From NCBI GenBank assembly GCA_045863395.1, contig BTVJ01000045.1, positions 1 to 63,142 of the forward strand: a stretch of DNA of 63,142 nucleotides, given 5' to 3'. The stretch is from Myxococcales bacterium (GTDB taxonomy: Bacteria > Myxococcota_A > UBA9042 > JABWCM01 > BTVJ01). Positions within the stretch are counted from its first letter, which is position 1; each line of letters starts with the position of its first letter. Positions 5,452 to 30,566 of this stretch are shown here, one piece after another. The translations under genes and the position numbers were made by a program. The notes below the pieces were generated by a model that saw only the letters and a list, made by a program, of their open reading frames with translations, was not told the origin of the DNA and ran no database searches.

Positions 5452-6231
5452 ATGGGGAGCCTGGTAGGGAGACACGCGCTGGTCTGCGGCGCGTCCGGCG
5501 GCATCGGCCGGGCGTCGGCCCTGGCCCTGGCGGAACGGGGGGCGGTCGTGACCGCGTTGGCGCGGAGCCGCGAGAGGCTCGGCCCGCTGGTCGCCCTGCT
5601 GCGAGAGGCGGGTGCCCCTGAGGCCCACGCGCTGGTCGCCGACCTGGACGAGCGGGCCGTGCTCGAGGAGCGGGTAGGTGCCCACCTGGCCGTAGGCCCC
5701 ATCCACATTCTCGTGAACAACGCGGGGGGGCCGCCCCCGGGCCCGCTGCTGGCGGCCACGGAGGGCGACTTCCTGGCCGCCCTCGGGCGCCACCTGTTCG
5801 CGGCCCACCTGCTGGTGCGGCTGGTGCTGCCCGGCATGGTCGCGGCGGGGTACGGGCGCATCATCAACGTCGTCTCCACGAGCGTCTACGAGCCGATCCC
5901 CAACCTGGGTGTCAGCAACGTGACGCGGGCGGCGGTCGCGGGGTGGGCGAAGACTCTGGCCGGGGAGCTCCCGCCCGGCGTGACCATCAACAACGTGCTG
6001 CCGGGCTTCACCGCGACGGATCGCCTTGCCTCCCTCGGGGCCGCCATCGCGGCGCGCACGGGGCGCACCGTGGACGAGGTGCGCGCGGACTGGGCGGCCC
6101 AGGCGCCGGAGGGGCGCCTCGGGCAGCCCGAGGAGGTGGCGGCGGTCGTCGCCTTCCTGGCGTCACCGGACGCGAGCTTCGTGCGCGGGCAGAGCATCGC
6201 TGCGGACGGCGGTCGCATGCGCTCCATCTGA
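5452..6231 (+). CDS. SDR-family oxidoreductase
   Basis: GASGGIG Rossmann motif, ILVNNAGGP, SNVTRAAV (atypical SDR active-site segment) and NNVLPG. GGAGG precedes ATG 5452. Confidence 0.9.
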   Translation: MGSLVGRHALVCGASGGIGRASALALAERGAVVTALARSRERLGPLVALLREAGAPEAHALVADLDERAVLEERVGAHLAVGPIHILVNNAGGPPPGPLLAATEGDFLAALGRHLFAAHLLVRLVLPGMVAAGYGRIINVVSTSVYEPIPNLGVSNVTRAAVAGWAKTLAGELPPGVTINNVLPGFTATDRLASLGAAIAARTGRTVDEVRADWAAQAPEGRLGQPEEVAAVVAFLASPDASFVRGQSIAADGGRMRSI

Positions 6232-6244
6232 GGTCTGAATCAGG

Positions 6245-7456
6245 ATGCAGTTCGACGTCTTCTTCTCCATCAGTCAGACGCCGGTGGGTGGGCACACACC
6301 CTCCGAGGCGGAGATGTTTCGGGGCTTCCTGCACGAGGTGGAGGCCGCCGACGCCTTGGGGTTTGGCACCGCCTGGCTCGCCGAGTCCCACCTGTCGTCC
6401 GAGGTGCAGAAGCGCCACGCCGGCGCGGTGATCCCCCACTGGCAGGGGGAGGTCGGCCTCAACACGGACCTGTTCCAGGCCGCCAACGCGGTCTTCCGGC
6501 GCACGAGGCGCATCGAGGTGGGCTCGGCGGTGATGAGCCTGCTCTGCAACGGCGGCCCCGTGGCTGCGGCAGAGCGGGTGGCCGCGTTCCTCGGCTGGCA
6601 CGGCCTCGACCCGGACGAGCGTCGCCGGGTCCACGTGGGCTTCGCGGGCGGGCGCTTCGAGTACATCAATCGTCCCTATGGGGTGATACCCCGGTCGCCG
6701 CTGGAGGAGGCGGCGTGGCCCGTCGTCAAAGGGCTGATCCTGGCGGAGGCGTCGGAGATCTTCCTGCGGCTGCTGCGAGGGGACGTGGTGGCGAGCGATG
6801 GGCCGGAGGCGACACTGACCCGCGCCGGCTTCCGCTCAGACGCGGACTGGCAGCGTGTCCGGGACCTTGGAGGGGGGGACGTGATCCCCGTGCCTCGCCG
6901 GTGGACCTTCGAGCCCTTGCAGATCGTGCCTCGGGAGTGGCGCCGGGACCTCTTGACCCTGACGCTGGGCTCCCACGACCCGGCGCTCCAGGTGGCGGTC
7001 AACCGGATCCTGCCCGTCCGGGTCTTCAACCTCTCCATCACGCGGCCGGAGATCATCGACGCCACACACGCGCGCATGGCGGCGGCCTTCCACCCGGACG
7101 GCGGGCCGTGGAGGCGGGAGTACATGCCGCGGACCGTGTTCGTGTTCATCAACGAGCAAGGGCACCTGTCGCCCGAGGGGAGGCGCGCAGCGGCCCGAGA
7201 GGAGGCGCGCGCCGCGCTGTCTGCCTACTGGACGGCCCTGGAGGGAACCATCGACCCGGCCAAGGTGGAGAACGCGGCGGACAACGCGCTGGTCGGCGAC
7301 GCGCGGGAGGTGGCGGCGCAGATCACCGAGCGGTTCCACCCCGACGACCGCCTGATGCTCTGGTTCGACTTCTTCAACCATGACGTGGGGCGGGTCATCG
7401 CCAACATGGAGGCCTTCATGACGCAGGTGGTGCCACTGCTCGGGGGGGCGCGATGA
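6245..7456 (+). CDS. Luciferase-like (LLM) flavin-dependent monooxygenase
   Basis: EVEAADALGFGTAWLAESH, TRRIEVGSAV and C-terminal FMTQVVP are typical of the bacterial luciferase-like family. Confidence 0.88.
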   Translation: MQFDVFFSISQTPVGGHTPSEAEMFRGFLHEVEAADALGFGTAWLAESHLSSEVQKRHAGAVIPHWQGEVGLNTDLFQAANAVFRRTRRIEVGSAVMSLLCNGGPVAAAERVAAFLGWHGLDPDERRRVHVGFAGGRFEYINRPYGVIPRSPLEEAAWPVVKGLILAEASEIFLRLLRGDVVASDGPEATLTRAGFRSDADWQRVRDLGGGDVIPVPRRWTFEPLQIVPREWRRDLLTLTLGSHDPALQVAVNRILPVRVFNLSITRPEIIDATHARMAAAFHPDGGPWRREYMPRTVFVFINEQGHLSPEGRRAAAREEARAALSAYWTALEGTIDPAKVENAADNALVGDAREVAAQITERFHPDDRLMLWFDFFNHDVGRVIANMEAFMTQVVPLLGGAR

Positions 7457-8577
7457 GGGGGCCTGGGCAGGAGCTGTACCCGACGTCTCCCATCGGGGAG
7501 GCGACCCCGGGGATCCCCACCGGGCGGGACGTGGAGTGGGAGCCGCTGGTCGACTACCGTCGCAACGGGGTGAGCGAGACCACCATCCACGGGGCGGTGG
7601 CCTGGGCGAGCGGCGGGCGCATCGTCCATTCGTTTGGGGGGAACGTGCTGTGCTACGGGCGCAGCATGATGAAGCCGCTCATGATCAAGGTGTTCGCGGA
7701 GGCGCTGGCGCCGGTGCTGGACTGGCGCCAGAAGGCCATCGCCGTGGCCTCCCACAACGGGGACACGGAGCACGTCGCCGCCGCCATGTCGATCCTCGAC
7801 GAGAGCGAGCACGGCCTCGTGCAGACGCCGCTCGACGTGCCGCTCGTGCAGTTCGGGCGCCAGGTGCGGCGGCCCCGGCGGTGGTATCACACCTGCTCGG
7901 GGGAGCACGCGGCCATCCTGCGGGGCTGTCGGCTCCTCGGGTGGAGCCGGGTGGGCTACACGCTGCCCCACCACCCCTTCTTCCAGGCATACGTGGACCA
8001 GGTGCGCCGCTTCCTCGGGGCGGACTGGAGCCCGCTGCGGGTGGCGCGCGACGGTTGCGGCCTGCCGACCATCTCCAACACGGTGGGGGAGCTGGCGGTG
8101 CTCTATGCGGGGCTCGCCCGCACGCGCGGAGAGGACTGGATCTGGGAGGCCATGATGCGCCACCCGGACCTGGTCGGCGGCTTCAACCGCCTGGACAGCA
8201 CGATCCTCAAGTCCTGCGGTGGGCGGGTCCTGGCCAAGGAGGGGGCGGACGGGTTGTTGGGGATGGCCATCGACCACCCGGACCACCCGGACGGGCTCGG
8301 CGTGGTCATCAAGATCGCGCACGGGTGGAACCCGCGCGCCACGTGGACCATCGCGCGCGCGGTCCTCGGGGTGCTGGGGCTCGAGCTGCGGAACCCTTAT
8401 GGGGTGCGGCGCCAGAAGGCCTTCGTGGTGCCGGGCATCGTGCCCCCGGAGCTGCTGCCGCGTCTGTTGGAGGTCCCCACCTGGGACGAGTGGGACCCGG
8501 ACACGGATCGCTGGACCTACGACTGGGACGAGCACGTGGGCGGGTTTCCCCCGCTGCCCGCGGCGAGGGAGCCATGA
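7453..8577 (+). CDS. Rhizobium-type (class 3, Asparaginase_II) asparaginase homologue
   Basis: RSMMKP, ASHNGD, TCSGEH (canonical NCSGKH), DGCGLP and AKEGADG. ATGA overlaps with both neighbours. Confidence 0.85.
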   Translation: MRGPGQELYPTSPIGEATPGIPTGRDVEWEPLVDYRRNGVSETTIHGAVAWASGGRIVHSFGGNVLCYGRSMMKPLMIKVFAEALAPVLDWRQKAIAVASHNGDTEHVAAAMSILDESEHGLVQTPLDVPLVQFGRQVRRPRRWYHTCSGEHAAILRGCRLLGWSRVGYTLPHHPFFQAYVDQVRRFLGADWSPLRVARDGCGLPTISNTVGELAVLYAGLARTRGEDWIWEAMMRHPDLVGGFNRLDSTILKSCGGRVLAKEGADGLLGMAIDHPDHPDGLGVVIKIAHGWNPRATWTIARAVLGVLGLELRNPYGVRRQKAFVVPGIVPPELLPRLLEVPTWDEWDPDTDRWTYDWDEHVGGFPPLPAAREP

Positions 8578-10007
8578 GGATGGTGCGAAACCTGATTGGG
8601 GGCAATCACGTCGCGGCGGATGAGGAGATTGACGACGTGTCGCCTGCCACCGGGGAGGTCCTCGCGCGGATTCCCAGGTCTCAGGCGAGTGACGTCGCTG
8701 CCGCCGTGGCCGCCGCCCGTGCGGCCGCCCCGGACTGGGCCGCGGTGGGGGTCGATGGGCGCGCCCGGCTCCTGGAGCGGCTCGCCGACGCCGTGGAGGG
8801 GCGCTTGGAGGAGCTGGCCGCCCTGGAGTCTGCCGATACGGGGAAGCCGGTCTCGCTGGCGCGGCGTATGGACATTCCCCGGGCGGTCGCCAACCTGCGC
8901 TTCTTCGCCGGGGCGGTCCGCCACGCCGAGACTCCCTGCCACGAGATGGACGGCGCCCTCAACTACACTTCGCGCCGCCCCCTCGGGGTGGTGGGGCTGA
9001 TCACTCCCTGGAATCTCCCCCTGTATCTGCTCACGTGGAAGGTGGCCCCCGCGCTGGCGACGGGAAACACGGTCGTCGCCAAGCCCAGCGAGCTGTCTCC
9101 GCTGACCGCGGCGGCCTTCGGAGAGCTCGCCGTGGACGTGGGGATCCCCCCGGGGGTGCTCAACATCGTACATGGGCTTGGGGGGGAGGCGGGGCAGGCG
9201 CTGGTCGAGCACCGGGACGTGCGCGCGGTCTCCTTCACCGGGGGTACGGCGACGGGCGCCCGCGTGGCGGCGACGGCCGCGCCGCGGTTCGCCAAGCTGT
9301 CGCTGGAGCTCGGCGGCAAGAACGCCACGGTGATCTTTGCCGACGCAGACCTGGACGCCGCCATCGAGGGGGCGACCCGCGCGGCGTTCACCAACCAGGG
9401 GCAGGTGTGTCTGTGCGGATCACGAGTCCTGGTGGAGCGCCCGGTCTACGAGCGCGTCGTCGATGGGCTGGTTGCTCGCGCTCGCGCGCTGCGGGTGGGC
9501 GATCCCGCAGACTCGAGCACCGAGGTGGGGGCGCTGATCTCCATCGCCCACCGGGACAAGGTGGAGTCCTATCTCCGTCTGGCCCGCGAGGAGGGCGGGC
9601 GACTCCTCTGCGGGGGAGAGCGCCCGGAGTTGCCGCCGCCGTTGAGCAACGGCGCCTTTCTGACCCCCGCGGTCATTGCGTCTCTCTCTCCGACGTGCCG
9701 TGTCTCAACCGAAGAGATCTTCGGCCCGGTCGTCACGGTCCACCCCTTCGACGCGGACGCAGACGCTGTGGAGATGGCCAACGGAGTGCGGTACGGCCTG
9801 TCTGCGTCCGTCTGGACGCGCGATCTCGCCCGCGCGCACAGGTTCAGCGCGGCGCTCGACGTGGGGATGGTCTGGGTCAACACCTGGCTGCTGAGGGACC
9901 TGCGCGTCCCCTTCGGCGGCACCAAGGACAGCGGCGTGGGGCGAGAGGGGGGGCGCTGGTCCCTCGAGTTCTTCACGGAGGCAAAGAACGTGTGCATCAA
10001 GGTCTGA
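8574..10007 (+). CDS. amnC: Aldehyde dehydrogenase, 2-aminomuconate/2-hydroxymuconate semialdehyde dehydrogenase type
   Basis: DIPRAVANLRFFA, ITPWNLPLYLLTWKVAPALA, LELGGKN, NQGQVCLCGSR and WLLRDLRVPFGG. Starts at an ATGA overlap (8574). Confidence 0.85.
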   Translation: MRMVRNLIGGNHVAADEEIDDVSPATGEVLARIPRSQASDVAAAVAAARAAAPDWAAVGVDGRARLLERLADAVEGRLEELAALESADTGKPVSLARRMDIPRAVANLRFFAGAVRHAETPCHEMDGALNYTSRRPLGVVGLITPWNLPLYLLTWKVAPALATGNTVVAKPSELSPLTAAAFGELAVDVGIPPGVLNIVHGLGGEAGQALVEHRDVRAVSFTGGTATGARVAATAAPRFAKLSLELGGKNATVIFADADLDAAIEGATRAAFTNQGQVCLCGSRVLVERPVYERVVDGLVARARALRVGDPADSSTEVGALISIAHRDKVESYLRLAREEGGRLLCGGERPELPPPLSNGAFLTPAVIASLSPTCRVSTEEIFGPVVTVHPFDADADAVEMANGVRYGLSASVWTRDLARAHRFSAALDVGMVWVNTWLLRDLRVPFGGTKDSGVGREGGRWSLEFFTEAKNVCIKV

Positions 10008-10048
10008 TGCGGTGATCGGCAACCTTCCCCATTGAGCGCCGCCGCGGT

Positions 10049-11155
10049 CTACTCCCGGCTGTGCGCGAGCAAGAACGCCATGGCCTTCTCGGCAAAGGCC
10101 GCTGAGAATGCGGGGATGTGGGTGCTCCCCTGCATGGCCCACAGCTCGACGGACGTGCCCGCGTCACAGCCTTGCCACCGCGTGACCTGCGTCTCGGCGC
10201 CCCCCACCTGGTCGTCGATGTCCAGAGGGTCGCCCGCGATGCCGCTCGGGTCACAGCCGTCCTTGGTGACCCACCGGCCCGCGGTCTCCTCGGCGCCGGG
10301 ATAGACCAGGCCTCCACCGAAGGCGATGGTCTCGTCCTCCGTCCCGTGGACCTGGAGCACGGAGACGGCCCCCGTCCCCTTGCACTTGGACTCGGACTTG
10401 AACGTGGCGCCGGCGATGCTGACGAGCGCCGTGATGCGGTCCGGTGCGTCGCAGGCCATGCGGTAGGACATGAACCCGCCGTTGGAGTGCCCCACCAGGT
10501 AGACGCGCTTGTCGTCGATGGTGTAGCCGGCGGACGCTTCGTCGATGAGCGACAGCACATAGGAGACGTCGTCCACCCCCACCCCGTAGAAGTCGCAACA
10601 GTAGTCGGTGGCGTTCCAGAACAGGTTGCCTTGCGCGTCCTTCGTGCCGTCCGGCACCACGAGGATGAAGCCGTCCTGGGTCGTGCGTCCGCTCAGCCCG
10701 AGGTAGATGTTCTGCACGAAGCCGTTGGCGGAGTAGCCGTGGAGCAGGATGACCAGGGGCCACGCCTTGGAGGGGTCATAGTTGCTCGGGGCATAGACCA
10801 CCGCGGGGCGGTCACCGCCGATGGACGTGGGCGGGGGTGGCTTCGGGTTGGCGGTATCGGCAGGCGTAGCCGTGTCCGTGGCGTCCGCAGGCTCGGCGGC
10901 CGCAGCCCCCCCGTCGCCCCCGGGCCCGCCGTCCGCGTCATCCGGCGGGGGGACGGTGTCCGCAGGCTGGAGGCCGGCGTCGAGGTCTTGCGCCGCATCG
11001 GGCACAGGGCCCGTCTCTGCGCCGCCGTCGACGGCGAGCTCGGCGGTGTCGGCGCCGCCTCCCGTCGTGTCAGCAGCGGTCTCGGGCGAGGCCGCGTCGC
11101 AGGCGACGACGAGCGCAAAGACGGCGAGCAGCGAGGCGGTGGCGTGGTGTGTCAT
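10049..11155 (-). CDS. Lipoprotein alpha/beta-hydrolase (LpqC/PHB-depolymerase-like esterase)
   Basis: Lipobox VVAC, an acidic Pro/Ala linker, then PLVILLHGY, WNATDYCCD, GHSNGGFM nucleophile elbow and VHGTEDET. Confidence 0.85.
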   Translation of the reverse strand: MTHHATASLLAVFALVVACDAASPETAADTTGGGADTAELAVDGGAETGPVPDAAQDLDAGLQPADTVPPPDDADGGPGGDGGAAAAEPADATDTATPADTANPKPPPPTSIGGDRPAVVYAPSNYDPSKAWPLVILLHGYSANGFVQNIYLGLSGRTTQDGFILVVPDGTKDAQGNLFWNATDYCCDFYGVGVDDVSYVLSLIDEASAGYTIDDKRVYLVGHSNGGFMSYRMACDAPDRITALVSIAGATFKSESKCKGTGAVSVLQVHGTEDETIAFGGGLVYPGAEETAGRWVTKDGCDPSGIAGDPLDIDDQVGGAETQVTRWQGCDAGTSVELWAMQGSTHIPAFSAAFAEKAMAFLLAHSRE

Positions 11156-11292
11156 GGTGTCGCAGGCTACCACCCGATGCGCCCCCCGTCGAGGCGGGCA
11201 CCTGCGCGCTGGCGCAGAAGCCGCGCGGGCGGCTATCATCGCCGGGCAGAGGCTCCCAGGATGACCACGCGGCGCCGCGGAGAGGACAGCAG

Positions 11293-12180
11293 ATGGCAGG
11301 AAGGATCGTCTCGGGCATGCTCGCCCCCCACCCGCCGCACCTGGTGTACGCGGAGAACCCGCCGCAGAACGAGCCCCGCGCCGAGTGCGGGTGGGAGATG
11401 CTGCGGTGGGGCTACGAGCGCGCGCGCCGGAGCCTGGATCAGAAGGGCTACGACGTCATCGTCGTGCACTCCCCCCACTGGAAGACCGTGATCGGCCACC
11501 ACCTGCTCGGCGTGCCGAGCTTCCAGGGCCTCAGCGTGGACCCGATCTTCCCGAACCTGTTCCGCTTCCACTACGACCTGCGCGTCGACGTGGAGCTGGC
11601 GGAGGCCATCGCCACCGAGGGGGCGGCGGCGGGGCTCGACATGAAGATGATGCGCAACCCAGACTTCCGCGTGGATTACGGGACCATCATCTCCTGCCAC
11701 ATGGTCAACCCGCGCTGGGACGTGCCAATCGTGGCCATCTCGTCCAACCGGGCCTACTACCAGTTCTCCGACGAGGTGGGCGACGCGCAGATGACGGCGC
11801 TGGGCGAGGCGACGCGAAGGGCCGTCGAGCGGACCGGGCGGCGCGCGCTGCTCCTCGCGTCCAACTCGCTCTCGCACCGCCACTTCACGGAGGAGCCGCC
11901 CATCCCCGAGGACATGAGCCGCGAGCACATCTACCACCATGGGCAGTACCTGTGGGACATGCACGCCCTCGACCTGATGCGGCGGGGCCGGACGCGGGAG
12001 CTGGTCCACGAGATGCCCGAGCTCATCGACCACGCGACCAGCGAGTGCAAGGAAGGCTCGCTCACGTGGCTCCTGGCGGCGCTCGGCTTCCCGGCCTACC
12101 CGGCGGAGGTCCACGCCTACGGCACGGTCATCGGGACCGGCAACGCGGTGGTCCAGTGGGACCCGGAGGTGGGGGCATGA
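11293..12180 (+). CDS. amnB: 2-aminophenol 1,6-dioxygenase beta (catalytic) subunit
   Basis: LAPHPPHLVYAENPPQNEPR..GWEMLRWGYERAR, HSPHW, SVDPIFPNLFRF, FRVDYGTI and YGTVIGTGNAV closely match known AmnB/CnbCb. Confidence 0.92.
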   Translation: MAGRIVSGMLAPHPPHLVYAENPPQNEPRAECGWEMLRWGYERARRSLDQKGYDVIVVHSPHWKTVIGHHLLGVPSFQGLSVDPIFPNLFRFHYDLRVDVELAEAIATEGAAAGLDMKMMRNPDFRVDYGTIISCHMVNPRWDVPIVAISSNRAYYQFSDEVGDAQMTALGEATRRAVERTGRRALLLASNSLSHRHFTEEPPIPEDMSREHIYHHGQYLWDMHALDLMRRGRTRELVHEMPELIDHATSECKEGSLTWLLAALGFPAYPAEVHAYGTVIGTGNAVVQWDPEVGA

Positions 12181-13595
12181 GCGGCGTCATCCGAGGGCTC
12201 ATCGTGCCCGGGCAGCCGCACCCGCTGTTGGCCCCTGACGGCTCTCCGGCGTGGCGCTCCTTGCGATCCGCCTTCGAGCGGGTGCGTGACGAGCTCCGCA
12301 CGTGGGAGGCCGACCTCCTCGTCCTCTACTCGACGGGCTGGCCCAGCGTCATCGGGCACCAGATGCAGGCGGACCCGGCCCCTCAGTGGGTCCACGTGGA
12401 TCAGGAGTGGCATGCGCTCGGGAGCATCCCCTACACGCTGCGCATGGACCCACAGTTCGCGGCCGCCTGGCGCGACGCGGCCCAGGCCCGGGGGCTCCAC
12501 GCCCGCACGGTCGCCTACCGCGGCTTCCCCGTCGACACGGGCACCATCGTCGCCTTGCGGCTCCTGGACCCCGACAATCGGATCCCCGCGTGCGTCGTGA
12601 GCTGCAACATGTACGCGGACCGGGCGGAGACCCTCGTGCTGGGCAAGGCGACCCGGGACGCCGTGCTGGCCACCGGGCGGCGCGCCGTCGCCGTCGCCGT
12701 GACCGCTCTGTCCAACCGCCTGCACACGGAGCCCGTCGAGCCCGCGCACGACCGCATCTCGTCGCTGAAGGACGACGAGTGGAACCGCAAGCTGCTGGAG
12801 CTGCTCGCCGACGGGCGCCTGGAGGACGTGAGCCAGCTCGCCCGCGAGTTCGCCGCCCAGGCCAACGGCGACTCCAAGGGCAGGGCGCTCTGGTGGCTCG
12901 CTTCGACGCTCGGGCAGCACAACGACTACGCCGGGACGGTCTACGCCTACGAGCCCGTGTGGGGGACCGGGGCCGCGCTGGTCGGGCTCGTGCCTGCGCA
13001 GCGTGCCGCCGCCCAGCGGGAGTTCGACGAGGCGGACCCCGAGGTCCATCGGGGGGATCGGGGAGTCCTCAGTGTCTCCCCGGAGGCCGCGCACGAGGCG
13101 AACGGGCCGCCGCCCCTTGCTGGTGCCCAACCGGCTATCGCCCCCGCGCCCTCCGCGCCGCCGCCACGGGAGGACGTCGTCCGCACGGACGCAGCGCCCC
13201 GCCCCGTCGGCGCCTACCCCCACGCGCGGCGGGTCGGGGACCTGCTCTACCTCTCGGGCATCGGCCCTCGCACCCCGGGGACCGACGCCATCCCGGGTGG
13301 GCCCGTCCGCGACCAGGACGGCTCCCCCCGCGACTATGACGTGGCCGCCCAGACCCGCCAGTGCATCGCAAACGTCGGCGCCATCCTGGAGGCGGCGGGG
13401 TCCAGTTTGGGGCGCGTCGTGGACGTCACGGTCTTCCTCATCGACATGGCGCGGGACTTCGCCGCCTTCAACGCGGTCTACGCAGAGCACTTCGCCGCAG
13501 TGGACGCGACCCGCACCACCGTGGAGGTGCGCGCCCTGCCGACGCCCATCGCCGTGGAGCTGAAGGTCGTCGCCCGGGCGGGGGACGCGCCATGA
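12177..13595 (+). CDS. amnA: Fusion of 2-aminophenol 1,6-dioxygenase alpha subunit and RidA-family 2-aminomuconate deaminase
   Basis: N-terminus has IVPGQPHPLL, YSTGWPSVIGHQ, FPVDTGTI and YEPVWGTGAA (AmnA-like). After a Pro/Ala linker, from about 13176, APRPVGAYPHARRVGDLLYLSGIGPR...TRTTVEVRALPTPIAVELKV is RidA/AmnD-like. No internal stop. Confidence 0.88.
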   Translation: MSGVIRGLIVPGQPHPLLAPDGSPAWRSLRSAFERVRDELRTWEADLLVLYSTGWPSVIGHQMQADPAPQWVHVDQEWHALGSIPYTLRMDPQFAAAWRDAAQARGLHARTVAYRGFPVDTGTIVALRLLDPDNRIPACVVSCNMYADRAETLVLGKATRDAVLATGRRAVAVAVTALSNRLHTEPVEPAHDRISSLKDDEWNRKLLELLADGRLEDVSQLAREFAAQANGDSKGRALWWLASTLGQHNDYAGTVYAYEPVWGTGAALVGLVPAQRAAAQREFDEADPEVHRGDRGVLSVSPEAAHEANGPPPLAGAQPAIAPAPSAPPPREDVVRTDAAPRPVGAYPHARRVGDLLYLSGIGPRTPGTDAIPGGPVRDQDGSPRDYDVAAQTRQCIANVGAILEAAGSSLGRVVDVTVFLIDMARDFAAFNAVYAEHFAAVDATRTTVEVRALPTPIAVELKVVARAGDAP

Positions 13596-14230
13596 GCGAC
13601 GACATCATCGACATCTCCCCCGTGGTGTCTCCGCGCATCGCCGTCTGGCCCGGTGACGTGGCCTTCCGCCGCACGGTCGCGCTCTCGATTGCGGCCGGAG
13701 ACAACCTGGAGCTGTCGTCCGTAGAGACAACTCTGCACGTCGGCGCACACGCAGACGCTCCGAGCCACTATCTCCTCGGTGCCCCCGGCATCGGCGAGCG
13801 CTCACTGGACCTCTACGTGGGCCCCTGCCAGGTCATCGCCGTCGACGTGCCCCGGGGCGAGCGAATCCGCCCCAACCACCTGCCGCGCGGCCTGCGCATC
13901 ACCTCCCCGCGGGTCCTGTTCAAGACCGGGAGCTTCCCCGACCCGGAGCGCTTCAACGAGGACTTCGTCGCCCTCTCCCCCGAGCTGGTCCACCTCGTGG
14001 CCGCCGAGGGAGGCCGCCTCGTCGGTATCGACACCCCGTCCATCGATCCCTGCCACGACAAGGAGCTGCGGTCTCACGCTGCGGTCGCAGCCCACGACAT
14101 GGCCGTCTTGGAGGGCCTCGTCCTCGATCACGTCGAGCCGGGCGCCTACACCCTGATCGCCCTGCCGCTGCGCCTAGCAGGCGCCGACGCCTCTCCGGTG
14201 CGGGCGGTGCTCTTGCGGGACGAGGCGTAG
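13592..14230 (+). CDS. kynB: Cyclase-family arylformamidase (kynurenine formamidase-like)
   Basis: IDISP..VWPGD, HVGAHADAPSHY (HxGxHxDxPxH), LVGIDTPSID, VLEGLVL and ADASPVRAVL. ATGA overlap with the upstream gene. Confidence 0.88.
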   Translation: MSDDIIDISPVVSPRIAVWPGDVAFRRTVALSIAAGDNLELSSVETTLHVGAHADAPSHYLLGAPGIGERSLDLYVGPCQVIAVDVPRGERIRPNHLPRGLRITSPRVLFKTGSFPDPERFNEDFVALSPELVHLVAAEGGRLVGIDTPSIDPCHDKELRSHAAVAAHDMAVLEGLVLDHVEPGAYTLIALPLRLAGADASPVRAVLLRDEA

Positions 14231-14378: not shown

Positions 14379-15992
14379 ATGAGTCACATGCGGTGGTGGG
14401 CGACCTCCCTGGCGCTCGCGTTGCCCCAGGTAGCCGTCGCGGCCGAGGCGCCCGAGGCTCCTGACGGGCCTGTCGCGTCCGTGGCGGAGGTTGCGGCACC
14501 TGCCGCCCCGGCCGACGACTTCGACCTGGGCGATGGGTGGAGCGTCGACCTGGGCCTCTTCGTCGAGTACCGGGTGGCCATGTCCCAGGTCTCGGGCGTC
14601 CAGCTCGGGCGACCCCTCGGCGAGGACCAGGGGCAGCTCGAGCCCACCGTCGGGTTCGAGAACCGCCTGCGCCTCGCGGGGCACGCCGCCTTCAAGCACC
14701 GGACGGGCTTCCTGCGCCAGGTGCGGCTGGATCTGGCCGCCGACCTGTTCTCGGGGCCGTTCTCCTCGTCGCTGGAGGACGAGCTGCTGCGGTACGACCC
14801 GCTCCAGCCCACGGCAGATCTGGCCTCCCGCGACTCCCAGTACCTGCGCGTCGCGTCTGCCGAGGTCACCACGATGGCGGGGCGTGTAGCCGGTGGGCGC
14901 ATGGCCAGCACCTGGGGGCTCGGCATCCTGGCCCAGGGCGCCGCGGACGACCCGCTCCAGTTCGGCTTCAAGCGCACGGGTCACCTGGTCAACCGGGTCG
15001 CCTACACGATGATGCCGTCGGTGTGGGCGCTCGGGGACAAAGGGGCGGTCGACGCCCCCTTCATCATCGGCGCCGCCTACGACTGGCTGGTCCTGGACGA
15101 CCGGGCCGACGAGCGCGAGGACGACAGCGGCAACAACATCATCGCGCTCCTCGGGTGGTTCGGCCGCGACCTGCAGGTGGGGGCCTACGGGGTCCGGCGC
15201 ACGCAGCAGAACGCGCTGGGCCTGGAGACCTCCGCCTGGGTGGGCGACCTCTACGCCCATGGCGTGCTCGACGTCGACGGCTGGAAGCTCCAGGCGGCCA
15301 CCGAGTGGGCGGTGATCTCGGGGGAGACCGAGGCCTTCCGCTCCTACGCCAACCCGGAGACGACGGACGTGCTCCAGGTGGGCGGCGTGGTGCGCTTCGA
15401 CGTGGAGAAGGACTGGTTCGTCGCGCGCCTGGAGGGCGGCTACGCCAGCGGCGACTCGCGGCCCTACGACGACACCATCCACACCATGAGCTTCGCGTCG
15501 GACTACCGGGTGGGCATCGCCCTGTTCCCCGAGCTGATCCGGCGGCACACGGCCGTCGCGGCCTACAACGCCCAGGACCCGCGCTTCACCGGCTTGCCGC
15601 CTGTGGGCTTCGACGACACCCCCACCCGCGGCGGGGTCACCGGCGCCATGTACCTGCATCCGGTGCTGGGCTTGCGCCCCTTCCCGTACCTGACGCTGCT
15701 CACCGGGGCGGTGATCGCGCGCGCCAGCGAGGACTACGCGGACGTCTACCGCACCGCATTGGCAGGGGGCACGCCGACGGGGCCCCGCGGAGCCACCCAC
15801 CAGCGCGACCTCGGTCTGGAGCTGGACGTGGGCGTGCGGTTCCACCACGCCATCGGTGCCGGAGTCTCCGTGGCCGCGCGCTTCGACGCGGGCGTGCTGT
15901 TTCCCGGGGCCGTGTTCGACGACGCGGACGGCAACGCGGCCTCGGCCCTTGCGGTCACGGCGGGGCAGGTCATGCTCCAGGGGGAGTGGTGA
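14379..15992 (+). CDS. Putative outer-membrane beta-barrel protein
   Basis: Signal peptide ending AVA-AE, alternating amphipathic strands, GRMASTWGLGILA, LGLELDVGVRF and a terminal aromatic W. Confidence 0.7.
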   Translation: MSHMRWWATSLALALPQVAVAAEAPEAPDGPVASVAEVAAPAAPADDFDLGDGWSVDLGLFVEYRVAMSQVSGVQLGRPLGEDQGQLEPTVGFENRLRLAGHAAFKHRTGFLRQVRLDLAADLFSGPFSSSLEDELLRYDPLQPTADLASRDSQYLRVASAEVTTMAGRVAGGRMASTWGLGILAQGAADDPLQFGFKRTGHLVNRVAYTMMPSVWALGDKGAVDAPFIIGAAYDWLVLDDRADEREDDSGNNIIALLGWFGRDLQVGAYGVRRTQQNALGLETSAWVGDLYAHGVLDVDGWKLQAATEWAVISGETEAFRSYANPETTDVLQVGGVVRFDVEKDWFVARLEGGYASGDSRPYDDTIHTMSFASDYRVGIALFPELIRRHTAVAAYNAQDPRFTGLPPVGFDDTPTRGGVTGAMYLHPVLGLRPFPYLTLLTGAVIARASEDYADVYRTALAGGTPTGPRGATHQRDLGLELDVGVRFHHAIGAGVSVAARFDAGVLFPGAVFDDADGNAASALAVTAGQVMLQGEW

Positions 15993-18900
15993 TGAGCGGA
16001 GTGTGGAGAAGGGCAATGACGAATGTGCGCGGGGCCGTCGTGACGGGGGCGCTGATCACGCTGGCAGCCGTCGCCGGTTGCCAGGGCGACGACACTCCCG
16101 GCCTGGGCCCGGCGCTGCTCAAGGGCCAGTTGCCCGGGCCCCGGGTCGTGTTCGATCCGCTCCGGCGCCCGGACCCCGAGGTGCCGTTCCCGAGCGATCT
16201 GGCGACCCGCATCGGGCCGGACGGCGCCTCGTCCCTCAATGTGAGCACCGAAGGGGCGACCGCCTACGAGCGCCGGTTCCGCAAGCACCTGAACGAGATT
16301 CCGGGCTTTTCGGGCATGACGCCCATCTCCGTCTCCTTCGACGCCCCCATCGACCTGCGCACGGTCACCGACAAGACGGTGTTCGTCATCAACGTGCAGC
16401 CCGGATCCAAGCGGTTCGGCGAGCGACTCCCCCTGGATCTCGGGCGCGGCTGGTTCCCCCACGACATCATCCCGACCAGCTATCTGCCGCACGACACCTA
16501 CAAGGACGACACCAGCATGGTCTTGCCGCCGGACAACCTGGCGGACCTGGACGGCGACGGGGTCCCGGAGACCCGTGTCTACCACTACGAGAACTCCACC
16601 AACACGCTGGACATCCGCCCGCTGGTGCCCATGGAGGCGGGTTCGCGGTACGCGGTCGTTCTGACACGGGGCGTCAAGGGCTGGAAGGACGGCAACTACA
16701 CGTCCATCGTGAGCCCCTTCGAGGCCGTCAACCACGACAGCCAGACCGAGTCTCTGCGGCGCGCCTTGCCGTCTCTGGACGAGGTGGGGGTCAAGCCGGG
16801 CCACATCGCCTTCGCGTGGACCCTGACGACGGGCGACCTGGCCAAGACGTTCCGCACCCTGCGCGACGGCCTGTATGGCCGCGGCACCTTCGCCTGGCTC
16901 GCGGAGCAGTTCCCGCCGGGCATCCACGACGTCTATGACCTGAGCGTGGAGTTCGACGGCGACGACAGCCACCCGAACCCGGACTACAAGTACCCGTATG
17001 TGGCCAACGACACGCGCTACGTCCTGCAGGGGGCCTACCTGAACAGCGTCATGGCGCTCATAGGCGCCTTCCAGGCGGGCCTGGGCGTGGACTTCGACCA
17101 CGTGGACTACGTGGTCTTCGGCGAGATGATCACGCCGAGCTTCCGCGCCACCGAGGACAACGTGTGGGACGTGGACCTGGCCGCGGGCACGGGCAGCGTC
17201 GCACCGGAGGCCGTGCCGTGGATGATCACGGTCCCGAAGACCACCGAGCACCACAAGCCGCCGTTCCCCGTGGTCGTGCACGCGCACGCGACGGCGACGA
17301 GCCGCATCGAGGTGCTGGTGCTGGCCGGCAAGCTCGCCCAGGCCGGCCTCGCCACCATCTGCATCGACGCGGTGGGCCACGGGCCAATCCTGACGGAGCC
17401 GAAGAAGATGCTCCTCGACGCGCTGGGCGGCGACGCCTCGAACCCCTCGACCATGTCACTGGTCGCGGGCATGGCGCGGGCGCTCCTCGGCCCGCTGCTC
17501 TTCACGGACTGGGAGACGAAGCTCCCGGCGGACATGTCCCTGGACGACATGCTCGCGGTGATGCTCGAGAACGGCTTCATGCAGCAGCTCGCGCTGAAGG
17601 GGCGTGCAGTGGACGACGACGGGGACTGCAACATCCGCGGCGGCGAGGCCTACTACACCCCCGACCCCTTCCGTCTGCGGGACGCCATGCGCCAGACCAC
17701 CCTCGACTACATGGTCGCCGTGCGCATGCTGCACTCGCTGTCTCAGAGTGCGGTGCCGACGCCGCCCAAGGAGCCGCGCAAGGCCACGCCCGCAGAGCTG
17801 ATGCCCAGCTTGCTTTCGGGCGACTTCAACGCGGACGGCACCCTCGACGTGGGCGGCCCGGACGTGCCGTACTTCATGTCCGGCGTGTCTCTCGGCGGTA
17901 TTCACACGGCGCTGACCGCCCCGCTGGAGGAGTACATCGTCGCCGCAGCCCCGGTGGTGGCGGGCGCGGGCATCGCCGACATCTTCGTGCGCACGAAGCT
18001 CAAGGACGTGGTCACGCCCATCATGCACCTGGCGTCGGGGCCGCTGGTCGTCGGCTGCCCCCAGGAGGATGGGACGGTCGCCGTCAGCTTCAACGACGAC
18101 TCGGACCGGTGCAAGATCACCGAGCGCACCACCTGGAAGGGCACCGACGGCACCTGCCTCGCGCTGCCCGAGGTGGCGAGCATCGTCCACGCCAGCCTGA
18201 AGGTGCCGGCCGGAGGGCGCGTGGTGGTCACCCACCTGCCGAGCGGGTTGTCGCACGAAGAGGTGGCAGACGCCACCGGCGCCTTCGCCGTCCCCATCGA
18301 GGCGGACATCGGCGACCCATTGCGCATCGACGTGCTCTCCACCAGCGGCGCGCCGGTGGACGGCGCGGACCTGATCTCGCCGTACCAAGGGGTGGCGAAG
18401 CCCCGCAACACCCCGGACTTCCGCCGCCTGGTGCAGCGGGTGGCCAACGTGCTGGAGGGCTCCGACGCCATCACCGTCGCGGACCGGGTGCTCTTGGACC
18501 CGCTCCCCGGCTACCCGGCCACCAACACGCTGCTCCTGCTGGCGGCGGGCGACCGCACGGTGAACTTCGCCGCGGGCCTCGCCCTGGCGCGCTCCATGGG
18601 CCTCTTCGGCAAGGACCTGGTCTCGCCCGAGGCGTCCTATCGCGCGTGGACCGAGGGCGCCATCAAGGACCGCCTGCTCGTCGACAGCGACGTGAGCGCC
18701 CCAATCCTCGACGAGAGCCACCCCGAGGGCGGCCCCGGGCTCTGCCGCAAGGTGGAGACGGGCACGCGGGGCGTCTCGGCCCTCTGCCTCGCCGACGTGA
18801 AGGGCCACCACGAGTACATCGCCCAGGCCAAAGGCTCGGACGCCTTCCCTCCGCTGGAGGGCTACAAGCCCACCTACACCGAGTACCACGCCAACATGAT

Positions 18901-19021
18901 CGTCTCGTTCTTCCACTCCCTCGGCACCCGCGTCGAGGAGGACCCCTGCTGGGCGGACTGGAAGTGCGCCACGGACAAGGGCCTCACCGCGAAGTGGGCG
19001 GAGGCGGTGGGGGCGGAGTAG
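15992..19021 (+). CDS. Large lipoprotein with an Ig-like N-terminal region and an alpha/beta-hydrolase (lipase-like) domain
   Basis: Lipobox VAGC; VPFPSDLATR/GFSGMTPISVSFDAPID N-terminal module; FPVVVHAHA, CIDAVGHG and SGVSLGGI nucleophile elbow. TGATG overlap with the upstream gene. Confidence 0.8.
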   Translation: MSGVWRRAMTNVRGAVVTGALITLAAVAGCQGDDTPGLGPALLKGQLPGPRVVFDPLRRPDPEVPFPSDLATRIGPDGASSLNVSTEGATAYERRFRKHLNEIPGFSGMTPISVSFDAPIDLRTVTDKTVFVINVQPGSKRFGERLPLDLGRGWFPHDIIPTSYLPHDTYKDDTSMVLPPDNLADLDGDGVPETRVYHYENSTNTLDIRPLVPMEAGSRYAVVLTRGVKGWKDGNYTSIVSPFEAVNHDSQTESLRRALPSLDEVGVKPGHIAFAWTLTTGDLAKTFRTLRDGLYGRGTFAWLAEQFPPGIHDVYDLSVEFDGDDSHPNPDYKYPYVANDTRYVLQGAYLNSVMALIGAFQAGLGVDFDHVDYVVFGEMITPSFRATEDNVWDVDLAAGTGSVAPEAVPWMITVPKTTEHHKPPFPVVVHAHATATSRIEVLVLAGKLAQAGLATICIDAVGHGPILTEPKKMLLDALGGDASNPSTMSLVAGMARALLGPLLFTDWETKLPADMSLDDMLAVMLENGFMQQLALKGRAVDDDGDCNIRGGEAYYTPDPFRLRDAMRQTTLDYMVAVRMLHSLSQSAVPTPPKEPRKATPAELMPSLLSGDFNADGTLDVGGPDVPYFMSGVSLGGIHTALTAPLEEYIVAAAPVVAGAGIADIFVRTKLKDVVTPIMHLASGPLVVGCPQEDGTVAVSFNDDSDRCKITERTTWKGTDGTCLALPEVASIVHASLKVPAGGRVVVTHLPSGLSHEEVADATGAFAVPIEADIGDPLRIDVLSTSGAPVDGADLISPYQGVAKPRNTPDFRRLVQRVANVLEGSDAITVADRVLLDPLPGYPATNTLLLLAAGDRTVNFAAGLALARSMGLFGKDLVSPEASYRAWTEGAIKDRLLVDSDVSAPILDESHPEGGPGLCRKVETGTRGVSALCLADVKGHHEYIAQAKGSDAFPPLEGYKPTYTEYHANMIVSFFHSLGTRVEEDPCWADWKCATDKGLTAKWAEAVGAE

Positions 19022-21314: not shown

Positions 21315-22313
21315 TCACTCCTCGATTCCCACCCGGCGCAGGATGTCGTGACAGAGACGGGCGAAGTCGTCGCGGCACCGGCCCACCGCCTTGACGTGAG
21401 CACCCATGGCGCCGTCTGCCGGAGTCAGGCGAAACATGGGCTTCCGGGCGTCCTGGGCCAGCGGCATCAAGCTCTGATAGTGGCGCAGGACGCCGAGACA
21501 GGACGGGTCCTCCTGGAAACCGAGACCGGCGGCTGAGCTGTCGTCCAGCACGAAGCGATGGTAGATCTCTGGCGCGCGGCCCACCCAGCGGTCATAGGCC
21601 CTGACAGGCCGGTCGAGGCGCATCCCGGTCTGCATCACCAGGTAGCCGAGCGGGTTCATACGCCCCGCCGGCAATTCGAGGCCCGCGTCCAGGTCCATTG
21701 GCCGGCGCGCCAGCCGATCATCCCAGGCCGCGCGCCAGGAGCGCAGCGTCGGCCCCAGGTTTCGCAGCCCCTGCATGGAGAAGAGATCCGGGGACAGGGG
21801 CGTGAGCACGTGGTCGGCCGCCAGCAGGGCGGAGCGGTTGATTGCCCCCAGGTTCGGGCCCACGTCGATGAGCACGACCTCTGCCTCGTGCTCCTTGGCG
21901 GCGGCCGAGATGGCGCGGTGAAACGCCGACTGCACGCGGAAGGCCGCCTCGTCCCGGTCGAGGACCTTGGGCCAGGTCTCAGACAGCTTGTCTTCAAAGG
22001 CGGACAGGGCGAGGTCACCCACGAGCAGCCCCAGGCGATCATCCACCGACTCGACGTGCGGGGCGCCGATGTCCCCCGTGCCCCGCAGGATGGGGCGCAG
22101 GCACCCGAGCAGAGTCTCCGTGTGCTCCCCGTCCAGGGGCCACAGCTCCTCGAGGCGGTCCTCGTCCAGACACATGGCCGTGAGGTTGGACTGGGGGTCC
22201 AGGTCGACCATGAGCACGCGATGTCCCAGGTCGCCGAGCATGGACGCGATGTGGTACACCAGGGTTGTCTTGCCGACTCCCCCCTTGTTGTTGAAGAAGG
22301 CGAGAGAGATCAT
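21315..22313 (-). CDS. ParA/MinD-family ATPase (long orphan type)
   Basis: FFNNKGGVGKTT, VDLDPQSNLT and LIDVGPNLGAINRSAL. Confidence 0.9.
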   Translation of the reverse strand: MISLAFFNNKGGVGKTTLVYHIASMLGDLGHRVLMVDLDPQSNLTAMCLDEDRLEELWPLDGEHTETLLGCLRPILRGTGDIGAPHVESVDDRLGLLVGDLALSAFEDKLSETWPKVLDRDEAAFRVQSAFHRAISAAAKEHEAEVVLIDVGPNLGAINRSALLAADHVLTPLSPDLFSMQGLRNLGPTLRSWRAAWDDRLARRPMDLDAGLELPAGRMNPLGYLVMQTGMRLDRPVRAYDRWVGRAPEIYHRFVLDDSSAAGLGFQEDPSCLGVLRHYQSLMPLAQDARKPMFRLTPADGAMGAHVKAVGRCRDDFARLCHDILRRVGIEE

Positions 22314-30563: not shown

Positions 30564-30566
30564 ACG

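Follow-up and report, generated by a model that had tools for sequence, protein, structure and literature searches.

What supplies the substrate of the 2-aminophenol ring-cleavage genes between positions 5452 and 14230 of the window (the whole stretch of 63,142 nucleotides that was analysed) is the question raised by this locus. A preliminary description had proposed that a luciferase-like monooxygenase and an asparaginase homologue form it from kynurenine. Open reading frames were assigned as genes on the basis of third-position GC and the context of their start codons, and the calls were then checked against Pfam and NCBIfam. Four plus-strand genes form a first block: an SDR (5452–6231; matches to PF13561 and PF00106), a divergent luciferase-like monooxygenase (LLM, 6245–7456), an asparaginase-II homologue (ASNII, 7453–8577) and an aldehyde dehydrogenase of the AmnC/NbaE type (ALDH, 8574–10007). 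A second block, on the same strand, comprises AmnB (11293–12180), an AmnA::RidA fusion (12177–13595) and KynB (13592–14230). Inspection of the junctions revealed 4-base overlaps for LLM/ASNII, ASNII/ALDH, AmnB/AmnA and AmnA-RidA/KynB, and a spacing of 13 bases between SDR and LLM. The two co-oriented, coupled blocks described earlier were thus recovered, but a minus-strand gene between them had been overlooked, encoding a PHB-depolymerase-like esterase (10049–11239; NF050058, 130 bits, with alpha/beta-hydrolase Pfam matches). This gene converges on ALDH and diverges from amnB, indicating that each block is transcribed as a unit of its own in this genome. No esterase homologue was found in any of 80 related loci, and unrelated inserts occupy the same ALDH-amnB gap in other loci; the esterase interrupts the operon and lies outside the conserved gene set.

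The ring-cleavage genes were assigned by comparison with solved structures. AmnB, the LigB-type catalytic beta subunit of 2-aminophenol 1,6-dioxygenase, aligns over residues 1–291 without gaps to 3vsg_B (E = 5.5e-120) and 8ihg_A, both solved beta subunits of this enzyme, which favours free 2-aminophenol as the intermediate, in agreement with the preliminary description. His13, His62, His195 and Glu251, which we take to be the iron ligands and base, are all present. In the fusion protein (PF02900 and PF01042), the LigB-type alpha subunit AmnA spans residues about 1–270 and matches 7txy_A (5e-62), followed by a Pro/Ala-rich linker and a RidA domain at residues about 333–470. The latter matches 2-aminomuconate deaminase (PDB 6izh, 6e-26), and on this similarity is assigned as a RidA-family 2-aminomuconate deaminase; RidA immediately follows AmnA in 30 of the 33 loci that have both. 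For ALDH, a 2-aminomuconate-6-semialdehyde dehydrogenase, the best PDB matches are the AMSDH structures 4npi and 4i1w (E = 2.5e-150), with a TIGR03216 score of 604.6 bits that does not reach the cut-off of 693. KynB, a cyclase-family metallohydrolase (PF04199), is a kynurenine formamidase with best PDB matches to the kynurenine formamidases 4cog (4e-47) and 4cob, and its TIGR03035 score of 210 bits falls just below the equivalog cut-off of 223. It carries the stretch H-V-G-A-H-A-D-A-P-S-H, presumably the metal motif.

The remaining three proteins are the candidates for the steps upstream and downstream of this core. LLM matches PF00296 with 37.1 bits over residues 1–114 only, and returned no NCBIfam match and no PDB match by sequence. 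Its AlphaFold model (pLDDT 83.8) adopts the TIM-barrel fold of this class, with RslO1, luciferases, SsuD and FGD as top Foldseek matches, all at 13–19% identity. The 3,6-diketocamphane monooxygenase, within the same identity range, ranks only 23rd, and LLM is no closer to Baeyer-Villiger than to desulfonating, luciferase or F420 enzymes, so that homology gives no pointer to its chemistry. Homologues of LLM number in the thousands; among the matches listed, 119 others share 65–87% identity.

ASNII (PF06089, 169 bits; no NCBIfam match) is the most conserved member of the gene set, at 72–81% identity. Its only relatives in the PDB are ReAV and ReAIV from R. etli (E about 1e-17), with a Foldseek TM of about 0.57 and 20–26% identity, and by sequence it is placed as a class 3, ReAV-type homologue. 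In ReAV, Arg47 binds the alpha-carboxylate, catalysis relies on a Ser-Lys pair, and zinc is bound by a pair of Cys residues (PMC12292245). Arg47, the Ser-Lys catalytic residues and both zinc-binding Cys are kept in ASNII, fitting a beta-aspartyl substrate, whereas the zinc-binding Lys138 of ReAV is replaced with an invariant Glu (CSGEH). The motifs R-S-M-M-K, SHNG, DGC and KEGADG show at least 95% conservation across 46 ASNII orthologues. ASNII may be a beta-aspartyl-(2-hydroxyanilide or 2-aminophenyl ester) hydrolase yielding L-aspartate and 2-aminophenol.

The SDR has Ser-Asn-x-x-Arg at the expected position of Tyr-x-x-x-Lys in 50–51 of 54 aligned sequences, which by sequence places it in a clade lacking the canonical motif, and its best PDB matches are SDRs without assigned function. 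Of 69 loci with sufficient sequence upstream, 46 have a co-oriented orthologue at most 1.5 kb ahead of LLM. It is a candidate 2-oxohex-3-enedioate (4-oxalocrotonate) reductase, or a candidate NAD(P)H:flavin reductase partner of LLM. The preliminary description had called for a search of the rest of the genome for a flavin reductase. One PF03358 gene was found there, but a genome search for PF01613 gave no match and the operon contains no classical flavin reductase.

Conservation of the arrangement was analyzed in 80 loci anchored on LLM. In the 42 whose downstream sequence extends 8 kb or more beyond LLM, ASNII was present in 35, ALDH in 33, AmnB in 29, AmnA in 27, RidA in 24 and KynB in 21, with all six in 19; apart from one KynB, these genes are on the LLM strand throughout. 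Record titles place the loci in Myxococcota, Planctomycetota, Acidobacteriota, Latescibacterota, Eisenbacteria, Krumholzibacteriia, Bdellovibrionales and one Thermoplasmatota archaeon, and the carrier MAGs, which represent many phyla, come from sludge, aquatic and other metagenomes. The linkage of LLM and ASNII with amnAB and kynB anticipated in the preliminary description is therefore conserved across phyla. Clustering of all ORFs in the loci revealed tryptophan 2,3-dioxygenase (TDO, kynA) as the top recurrent extra neighbour family. TDO accompanies the operon in 26 of the 80 loci, in most of them as a co-oriented TDO-SDR-LLM or TDO-LLM, and in L028, L043, L065 and L080 the whole set from TDO to KynB forms a compact array of eight genes. 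The remaining neighbour families are housekeeping-type and occur in at most nine loci each. In L041, LLM lies among unrelated genes, as it does in L073 by ORF layout.

Kynureninase and the operon exclude each other at the genome level. Among the window ORFs scanned with Pfam and NCBIfam, none matched kynureninase, 3-HAO or another canonical family of the kynurenine pathway, as had been reported for the first two. The window's genome is 97.4% complete and encodes TDO, away from the operon, while kynureninase was not found in it (best match 21.7 bits), nor were DmpG aldolase, 4-OT tautomerase or CofE. In a sample of 300 genomes of the same phylum, excluding the window's own, ASNII was present in 39, AmnB in 41 and LLM in 38, with all three in 35 and any in 43; 48 genomes had kynureninase over the cut-off, and none of these was among the 43. 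ASNII and AmnB occurred together in 38 genomes, ASNII only in one and AmnB only in three, and TDO was present in 37 of the 39 ASNII genomes and not found in two. A second sample of 50 carrier genomes, reached through the LLM loci, again had no kynureninase over the cut-off, with two contig-end fragments in one genome; TDO was present in 47 and not found in three. The anti-correlation with kynU predicted earlier is thus borne out, with the reservation that most genomes are incomplete, mutually related MAGs and that the samples share genomes (for example, G309 is G272), so the counts overstate independence. The search for 3-HAO was run without a positive control. In three carrier genomes (G329, G346 and G330), LLM is present and neither ASNII nor AmnB was found; G172 has LLM, AmnBA-RidA-KynB and TDO, with ASNII not found; and in G056, G062 and G167, ASNII and AmnB are present with no LLM at E ≤ 1e-80.

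A kynureninase-free route of tryptophan breakdown is well supported by these data at the pathway level, and the operon probably encodes its core, in which LLM and ASNII would yield aspartate and 2-aminophenol from kynurenine or N-formylkynurenine. The kynurenine route through LLM and the asparaginase homologue, as put forward in the preliminary description, is supported as a whole, while for its Baeyer-Villiger and amidase chemistry we infer the following scheme. TDO, whose gene lies elsewhere in this genome but next to the operon in many relatives, would produce N-formylkynurenine, and KynB would remove the formyl group either at this point or later, from 2-formamidophenol. LLM, as a putative FMN-dependent kynurenine or N-formylkynurenine Baeyer-Villiger oxygenase, would insert oxygen between the ring and the carbonyl of the side chain with aryl migration. 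An O-to-N acyl shift could then turn the resulting beta-aspartyl 2-aminophenyl ester into N4-(2-hydroxyphenyl)asparagine. Hydrolysis of the beta-aspartyl compound by ASNII through a Ser acyl-enzyme would release L-aspartate and 2-aminophenol, followed by ring opening by AmnAB, oxidation of 2-aminomuconate semialdehyde by ALDH, and conversion of 2-aminomuconate to 2-oxohex-3-enedioate by the fused RidA domain. Finally, the SDR may reduce this product towards 2-oxoadipate, or feed reduced flavin to LLM. No description of a route from kynurenine to aspartate and 2-aminophenol was found in the literature searched. If correct, the proposal would represent an undescribed mode of tryptophan breakdown in bacteria and some archaea, in which kynureninase is bypassed and the ring is opened by well-known aminophenol enzymes.

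The same genes could also act in another order, with LLM substituting for kynurenine 3-monooxygenase, AmnAB cleaving 3-hydroxykynurenine (itself an o-aminophenol), and ASNII serving as a C-C hydrolase that splits the acyl-substituted aminomuconate semialdehyde through a beta-aspartyl-enzyme into aspartate and 2-aminomuconate semialdehyde. Gene content, TDO linkage and kynureninase absence fit this order equally well, ASNII keeps the residues binding an amino-acid head group, and the LLM fold cannot separate hydroxylation from Baeyer-Villiger chemistry. We nevertheless consider it unlikely, since AmnB shows a gap-free alignment to structures named as dioxygenases of unsubstituted 2-aminophenol and 2-amino-5-chlorophenol, whereas accommodating a bulky acyl group beside the amine should require a reshaped pocket. 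Aromatic hydroxylation is also atypical of LLM-class flavoenzymes, and we know of no carbon-carbon hydrolysis by the class 3 asparaginase or beta-lactamase fold.

Still less probable is a natural aminophenol precursor other than kynurenine, such as an unrelated N-acyl or N-aryl compound, for which LLM, ASNII and SDR would carry out the upper steps. The KynB homologue would then serve as a general arylformamidase, and the linkage of TDO would reflect no more than a shared role in aromatic nitrogen catabolism. The slight shortfall of KynB against TIGR03035 and the unlinked position of TDO in this genome and in 54 of 80 loci would agree with such a precursor, as would the actinobacterial ARO microcompartment, which is described as having no known natural precursor of 2-aminophenol (PMC10470539). 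However, TDO leads the recurrent neighbours beyond the operon genes, is found immediately ahead of the operon, in the same orientation, in many loci from different phyla, and is present in nearly all ASNII and carrier genomes, and the strict exclusion of kynureninase is hard to explain unless kynurenine is the substrate. That ASNII is an ordinary L-asparaginase, with LLM and SDR as unrelated passengers of a classical amn-type xenobiotic cluster, is very improbable. Public records do name it 'asparaginase' or 'L-asparaginase II', and it belongs to PF06089, but its low identity to characterised asparaginases, the invariant Glu at the zinc-binding Lys position, its translational coupling to LLM and ALDH, and its near-perfect co-occurrence with AmnB argue against this. 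Moreover, the lower-pathway amnFEHG genes are absent, the DmpG-type aldolase of the classical lower meta-pathway occurs in only 5 of the 50 carrier genomes, and the carriers belong to many phyla and are not known nitroarene degraders. For the preferred kynurenine route, a weak sign of operon expression comes from RNA-library contigs of three studies, which span all genes and bridge four gene junctions and which, by the tool's own warning, may contain DNA.

The window has a G+C content of about 72%, and genes were therefore called by third-position G+C and start-codon context. On the plus strand, the SDR gene (5452-6231; gene call with Pfam and NCBIfam) is followed by a luciferase-like monooxygenase gene (LLM, 6245-7456; PF00296, at the N-terminus only), an Asparaginase_II gene (ASNII, 7453-8577; PF06089) and an aldehyde dehydrogenase gene (ALDH, 8574-10007; assigned in the same way as SDR). 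A second plus-strand block comprises the LigB-type AmnB (11293-12180; PF02900) and AmnA, the latter fused to a RidA domain (12177-13595; PF02900 and PF01042), and a KynB of the cyclase family (13592-14230; Pfam and NCBIfam). Four junctions are 4-base overlaps, and 13 bases separate SDR from LLM. Gene calls, Pfam and NCBIfam bore out the two-block gene set of the preliminary description, which had overlooked a PHB-depolymerase-like esterase gene on the minus strand between ALDH and amnB (10049-11239). Searches by tblastn gave no homologue of this esterase in any of 80 related loci anchored on LLM, and it is therefore regarded as a local insertion. The inserts found between ALDH and amnB in other loci are unrelated (UvrD helicase, M60 peptidase, MopE-repeat proteins and NnrS), and this junction seems to tolerate insertions. 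The N-terminal 140 residues of the esterase gave no domain match.

The genes flanking LLM and ASNII encode enzymes of known kind. AmnB residues 1-291 align without gaps to 3vsg_B (E 5.5e-120) and 8ihg_A, solved beta subunits of 2-amino-5-chlorophenol and 2-aminophenol 1,6-dioxygenases, and include His13, His62, His195 and Glu251, which we take to be the iron ligands and the base. PF02900 matches both adjacent ORFs, joined by a stop/start overlap, and each subunit, the catalytic beta and the non-catalytic alpha, best matches its own PDB counterpart, the AmnA part matching the alpha subunit 7txy_A at 5e-62. By subunit pairing and kinship, AmnBA is thus a predicted 2-aminophenol 1,6-dioxygenase. 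The RidA domain scores 92 bits with PF01042, and the top match in this region is the 2-aminomuconate deaminase 6izh (6e-26). ALDH is nearest to the AMSDH structures 4npi, 4i1w and 5kj5 (about 1e-150), with weaker matches to hydroxymuconic-semialdehyde dehydrogenases (1e-130). The best PDB matches of KynB are kynurenine formamidases (4e-47); its score of 210 bits lies under the TIGR03035 equivalog cut-off of 223.05. Its motif H-V-G-A-H-A-D-A-P-S-H fits HxGxHxDxPxH, presumably the metal motif of the cyclase family, with Ala where the expected pattern has Thr or Ser.

The 80 loci were obtained by an LLM scan with one genome per species, and gene presence was scored by tblastn with the proteins of the window. 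Among the 42 loci holding at least 8 kb downstream of LLM, ASNII was detected in 35, ALDH in 33, AmnB in 29, AmnA in 27, RidA in 24 and KynB in 21. All of these genes, one KynB excepted, were on the LLM strand, and all six occurred together in 19 of the 42. SDR lay within 1.5 kb upstream of LLM in 46 of 69 loci with sufficient upstream DNA. By record titles, some of which are automatic bin labels that are plainly unreliable, the loci belong to Myxococcota, Planctomycetota, Acidobacteriota, Latescibacterota, Eisenbacteria, Krumholzibacteriia, Bdellovibrionales and one Thermoplasmatota archaeon. The linkage of LLM and ASNII with amnAB and kynB, proposed earlier from the window, is thus conserved across several phyla. 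A search for cultured carriers returned LLM and ASNII homologues almost entirely from MAGs, with no laboratory strain among those listed.

Exceptions to the gene set occur. Neither ASNII nor AmnB was near LLM in 7 of the 42 loci; in five genomes whose LLM locus had no AmnB, an orthologue (68-77% identity) lay elsewhere. ASNII and AmnB were not found in three LLM-bearing genomes (G329, G346 and G330), ASNII was not found in G172, which carries LLM, AmnBA-RidA-KynB and tryptophan 2,3-dioxygenase (TDO) on a single contig, in G051 the sole AmnBA pair is a more distant one, and three genomes (G056, G062 and G167) gave no LLM match at E <= 1e-80. Incompleteness of MAGs may explain some of these cases, not necessarily all. 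The LLM orthologues of loci L041 and L073, from G329 and G346, are of 62-65% identity, and both genomes have a TDO; the neighbours of the L041 gene encode a glycosyltransferase, a methyltransferase and CIA30-domain proteins, and L073 looks similar in its ORF layout. Three further loci (L016, L060 and L070) are rearranged, with an SDR-LLM-ALDH module followed a few kb downstream by a second module of a separate, unfused RidA, then KynB, ASNII, AmnB and AmnA.

Clustering that used no prior labels, applied to every ORF in the 80 loci, linked the operon to tryptophan. Once the genes of the operon and the antisense shadows of these were set aside, the commonest families were two TDO groups, and every other neighbour family, of housekeeping type, was confined to at most nine loci. 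TDO occurred in 26 of the 80 loci, including 22 of the 54 whose upstream DNA reaches 4 kb or more, mostly in the order TDO-SDR-LLM or TDO-LLM with all genes on one strand, and four loci (L028, L043, L065 and L080) contain compact TDO-to-KynB arrays. The preliminary description had called for a search for TDO in the rest of the genome; one was found, alone on a different contig.

The best kynureninase match in the genome of the window, which is 97.4% complete, scored 21.7 bits. In a sample of 300 further genomes of the phylum, taken to be Myxococcota from the record title of locus L015, whose genome is part of the sample, ASNII was present in 39 (in one of them partial), LLM in 38 and AmnB in 41; 35 genomes have all three and 43 at least one. 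Kynureninase exceeded the cut-off in 48 genomes of this sample, none of them among the 43, and no family had both the gene set and kynureninase. TDO was found in 141 of the 300, among them 37 of the 39 with ASNII, 46 of the 48 with kynureninase and 56 that had neither. Among 50 carrier genomes to which the loci led, TDO was present in 47 and kynureninase above the cut-off in none, with two contig-end fragments in one genome. Because the two sets overlap in genomes, and the genomes are related to one another, the counts do not represent independent trials; the predicted anti-correlation with kynureninase nevertheless held in both. A family search for 3-HAO gave no match in the genome of the window and equally none in control genomes, and is uninformative. 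At the level of the pathway, there is strong support for a conserved operon that is linked to tryptophan, does not occur with kynureninase and supplies AmnAB.

Conversion of kynurenine to a ring that AmnAB can cleave requires that an oxygen be placed on the ring carbon bearing the side chain, and that this chain of four carbons be lost. The most economical account of the gene content, we infer, assigns these steps to LLM and ASNII, as the preliminary description had proposed. In this mechanism, the flavin peroxide of LLM would add to the aryl ketone, and migration of the electron-rich aryl group would give the beta-aspartyl 2-aminophenyl ester. The ortho-amine would then capture the acyl group, forming N4-(2-hydroxyphenyl)asparagine, a beta-aspartyl amide, which is the kind of bond that enzymes of the ASNII family cleave; its cleavage by ASNII would release L-aspartate and 2-aminophenol. 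Free 2-aminophenol as a predicted intermediate gains support from the close kinship of AmnB with true 2-aminophenol dioxygenases. In an alternative order, LLM would act on N-formylkynurenine, conceivable in view of the greater electrophilicity expected of its ketone, leaving 2-formamidophenol to be deformylated by KynB. The esterase at 10049-11239 was also considered as the hydrolase of the Baeyer-Villiger ester, and was rejected because the 80 related loci yielded no homologue of it. The specific combination of Baeyer-Villiger and beta-aspartyl hydrolase chemistry has, in our estimate, a roughly even chance of being correct.

LLM scores 37.1 bits with PF00296 (cut-off 27.9) and gave no NCBIfam model match and no PDB match by sequence; its names in the Atlas are generic LLM only. 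Its homologues number in the thousands, with 119 others listed at 65-87% identity. The structural model (pLDDT 83.8) adopts a luciferase-like TIM barrel, the fold also found in bacterial luciferase and in the type II Baeyer-Villiger enzymes, the 2,5- and 3,6-diketocamphane monooxygenases, with which LLM would share a reaction in which a flavin peroxide attacks a carbonyl and migration follows. Foldseek returned 157 PDB matches at E <= 0.001, and every match listed belongs to the LLM family, with 13-19% identity to RslO1, luciferases, SsuD, F420 enzymes and 3,6-diketocamphane monooxygenase. The last (4uwm) ranked 23rd at 15% identity, and RslO1, SsuD, luciferases and FGD ranked equal or higher, so that the ranking gave no specific kinship to known Baeyer-Villiger LLMs. 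The fold match confirms the family and not the chemistry; as a sign of Baeyer-Villiger activity the comparison failed, since other chemistries were not separated. The proposed substrate, an aryl ketone amino acid, would also set LLM apart from the type II enzymes.

Dependence of LLM on F420 was considered as well. A search of the genome of the window gave no F420 ligase CofE (PF01996), which favours FMN as the probable cofactor. No PF01613 flavin reductase was found in this genome, and no dedicated reductase partner of LLM was identified. The candidates are one PF03358 gene on another contig and the atypical SDR directly upstream of LLM, for which a flavin reductase role is conceivable for this reason.

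ASNII scores 169.2 bits with PF06089 (cut-off 25), and Foldseek with its moderately confident model (pLDDT 68.7) returned only the class 3 asparaginases ReAV and ReAIV of Rhizobium etli at E <= 1e-10. These sole structural relatives, also of PF06089, are 20-26% identical to ASNII and share its fold. Across 46 orthologues, conservation of the motifs R-S-M-M-K, SHNG and KEGADG is 95% or higher, and ASNII keeps both tandem pairs of Ser and Lys (Ser48-Lys51, Ser80-Lys263; ReAV numbering) together with Arg47, Cys135, His139, Asp187 and Cys189. The ReAV zinc site Cys135-Lys138-Cys189 is altered: both Cys are present, whereas Lys138 is replaced by an invariant Glu (CSGEH). According to passages of a paper on ReAV, L-Asn is gripped at its alpha-carboxylate and alpha-amino groups by Arg47 and the zinc site, and Ser48 forms the beta-acyl-enzyme (PMC12292245). 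Taken with these residue roles, the retained residues and the Lys138 substitution make ASNII look like an active hydrolase of a beta-aspartyl compound, unlike a typical asparaginase. Its aromatic-catabolism gene context, which also distinguishes it from ReAV and ReAIV, argues against L-asparagine hydrolysis as its probable physiological role. LLM and ASNII are both small, soluble-looking proteins. ASNII further differs from ReAV and ReAIV in a 45-residue N-terminal extension and an Arg-rich loop, both modelled with low confidence. The loop (residues 126-144, TPLDVPLVQFGRQVRRPRRW) lies directly ahead of CSGEH, is almost invariant in orthologues, has pLDDT below 50 and is unlike the ReAV sequence at the same place; it could be a clade-specific lid or substrate-binding element.

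The SDR clade keeps the glycine-rich NAD(P) motif and departs from the classical catalytic motif Ser...Tyr-x-x-x-Lys, having Ser and Arg at the catalytic Tyr and Lys positions (Ser-Asn-x-x-Arg in place of Tyr-x-x-x-Lys) in 50-51 of 54 aligned sequences. A DmpG-type aldolase and a 4-OT tautomerase were not found in the genome of the window, and DmpG was present in only 5 of the 50 carrier genomes; judged from gene content, the classical lower meta-pathway appears largely missing. Possible roles of SDR are reduction of 2-oxohex-3-enedioate to 2-oxoadipate, or flavin reduction for LLM.

The lower half of the route belongs to the 2-aminophenol meta-cleavage family. Like the window, the amn (Pseudomonas sp. 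AP-3, Burkholderia xenovorans LB400), cnb (Comamonas CNB-1) and nbz (P. pseudoalcaligenes JS45) clusters contain a two-subunit LigB-type AmnBA, a 2-aminomuconate-semialdehyde dehydrogenase and a RidA-type 2-aminomuconate deaminase. In those clusters, 2-aminophenol arises from nitrobenzene via a nitroreductase and a mutase, whereas here the genes accompany TDO, KynB, LLM and ASNII, the deaminase is fused to AmnA, and the decarboxylase, hydratase and aldolase lie outside the operon and were mostly not found in the carrier genomes. The ends of the route are those of the kynurenine pathway. It shares TDO and kynurenine formamidase at the start, and 2-aminomuconate semialdehyde dehydrogenase and 2-aminomuconate deaminase at the end, with the canonical pathways (kynA-kynB-kynU to anthranilate; KMO, KynU, HAAO, ACMSD, AMSDH and AMD as in Burkholderia cenocepacia). 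It differs in that kynureninase was not found in carriers, the proposed intermediate is 2-aminophenol instead of 3-hydroxyanthranilate, and the side chain would leave as aspartate and not alanine. As the proposed route does not pass through ACMS, it would have no ACMSD step and no link to quinolinate and NAD synthesis. The bridge, formed by LLM and ASNII and perhaps SDR, is without a described counterpart, and no description of a tryptophan route via LLM and ASNII was found in searches of a full-text library that lacks part of the subscription-journal literature.

To our knowledge, two bacterial branches of tryptophan degradation are known, both via kynureninase. A third, kynureninase-free branch would combine Baeyer-Villiger oxidation of kynurenine or N-formylkynurenine by LLM, as a new luciferase-like flavoenzyme, with cleavage by ASNII, as a repurposed class 3 'asparaginase', to give aspartate and 2-aminophenol as the natural amn substrate, with the xenobiotic amn/cnb/nbz clusters recruited from it and the Tyr-less SDR acting as a 2-oxohex-3-enedioate reductase, in several phyla and Thermoplasmatota; we rate this full reading tentatively, at a little under an even chance. 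If true, it would add a branch that is widespread in environmental bacteria and yields aspartate instead of alanine, predict two enzyme activities, neither described before, and give a specific function to thousands of proteins labelled 'asparaginase' or 'LLM class oxidoreductase'. It would also supply the natural precursor asked for in passages of an mBio paper on the ARO microcompartment locus (Actinobacteria, Micromonospora rosaria), which describe the precursor of 2-aminophenol as unknown and probably natural (PMC10470539). As presented there, the ARO locus resembles the window in its 2-aminophenol meta-cleavage genes and its occurrence in non-polluted habitats. In the PDB search, the ARO AmnA (7txy_A) was the top match to AmnA of the window. 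The ARO locus has shell proteins and an upper pathway described as not identified, whereas the window operon has no shell genes and a predicted upper pathway from tryptophan. Current interest in what becomes of 2-aminomuconate is shown by a preprint of 2026 on ASPDH.

Metagenomes from bioreactors, wastewater, sludge and aquatic sites contain near-identical DNA. RNA libraries of three studies yielded contigs that span all genes and bridge the LLM/ASNII, ASNII/ALDH, AmnB/AmnA and AmnA-RidA/KynB junctions; because RNA libraries can contain DNA and contigs do not prove single transcripts, this is a weak sign that the operon is transcribed.

Other features were observed elsewhere in the window. Just 3' of kynB, two large plus-strand ORFs of 537 and 1009 residues (14379-19021) are without a Pfam domain and gave only faint NCBIfam matches (TIGR04551 family; VolA/Pla-1 lipase); their adjacency to the operon is not kept among the 80 loci. 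A 3129-residue plus-strand protein (38352-47741) contains 31 repeats of a MopE-type putative copper-binding motif together with thrombospondin type 3 repeats, and its C-terminal region bears a weak resemblance to Vgb lyase. On the minus strand, one 761-residue ORF (34459-36744) combines CrtC-type lipocalin domains with a polyprenyl synthetase domain. A manganese/zinc-type ABC transporter pair (29739-31457) lies ahead of a plus-strand homologue of calpain-family (Peptidase_C2) cysteine proteases (32051-33259). A Schlafen AlbA_2 / HATPase_c_4 protein adjoins a 681-residue radical SAM protein on the minus strand (22310-25654), and a ParA/MinD-like ATPase is encoded at 21315-22313.
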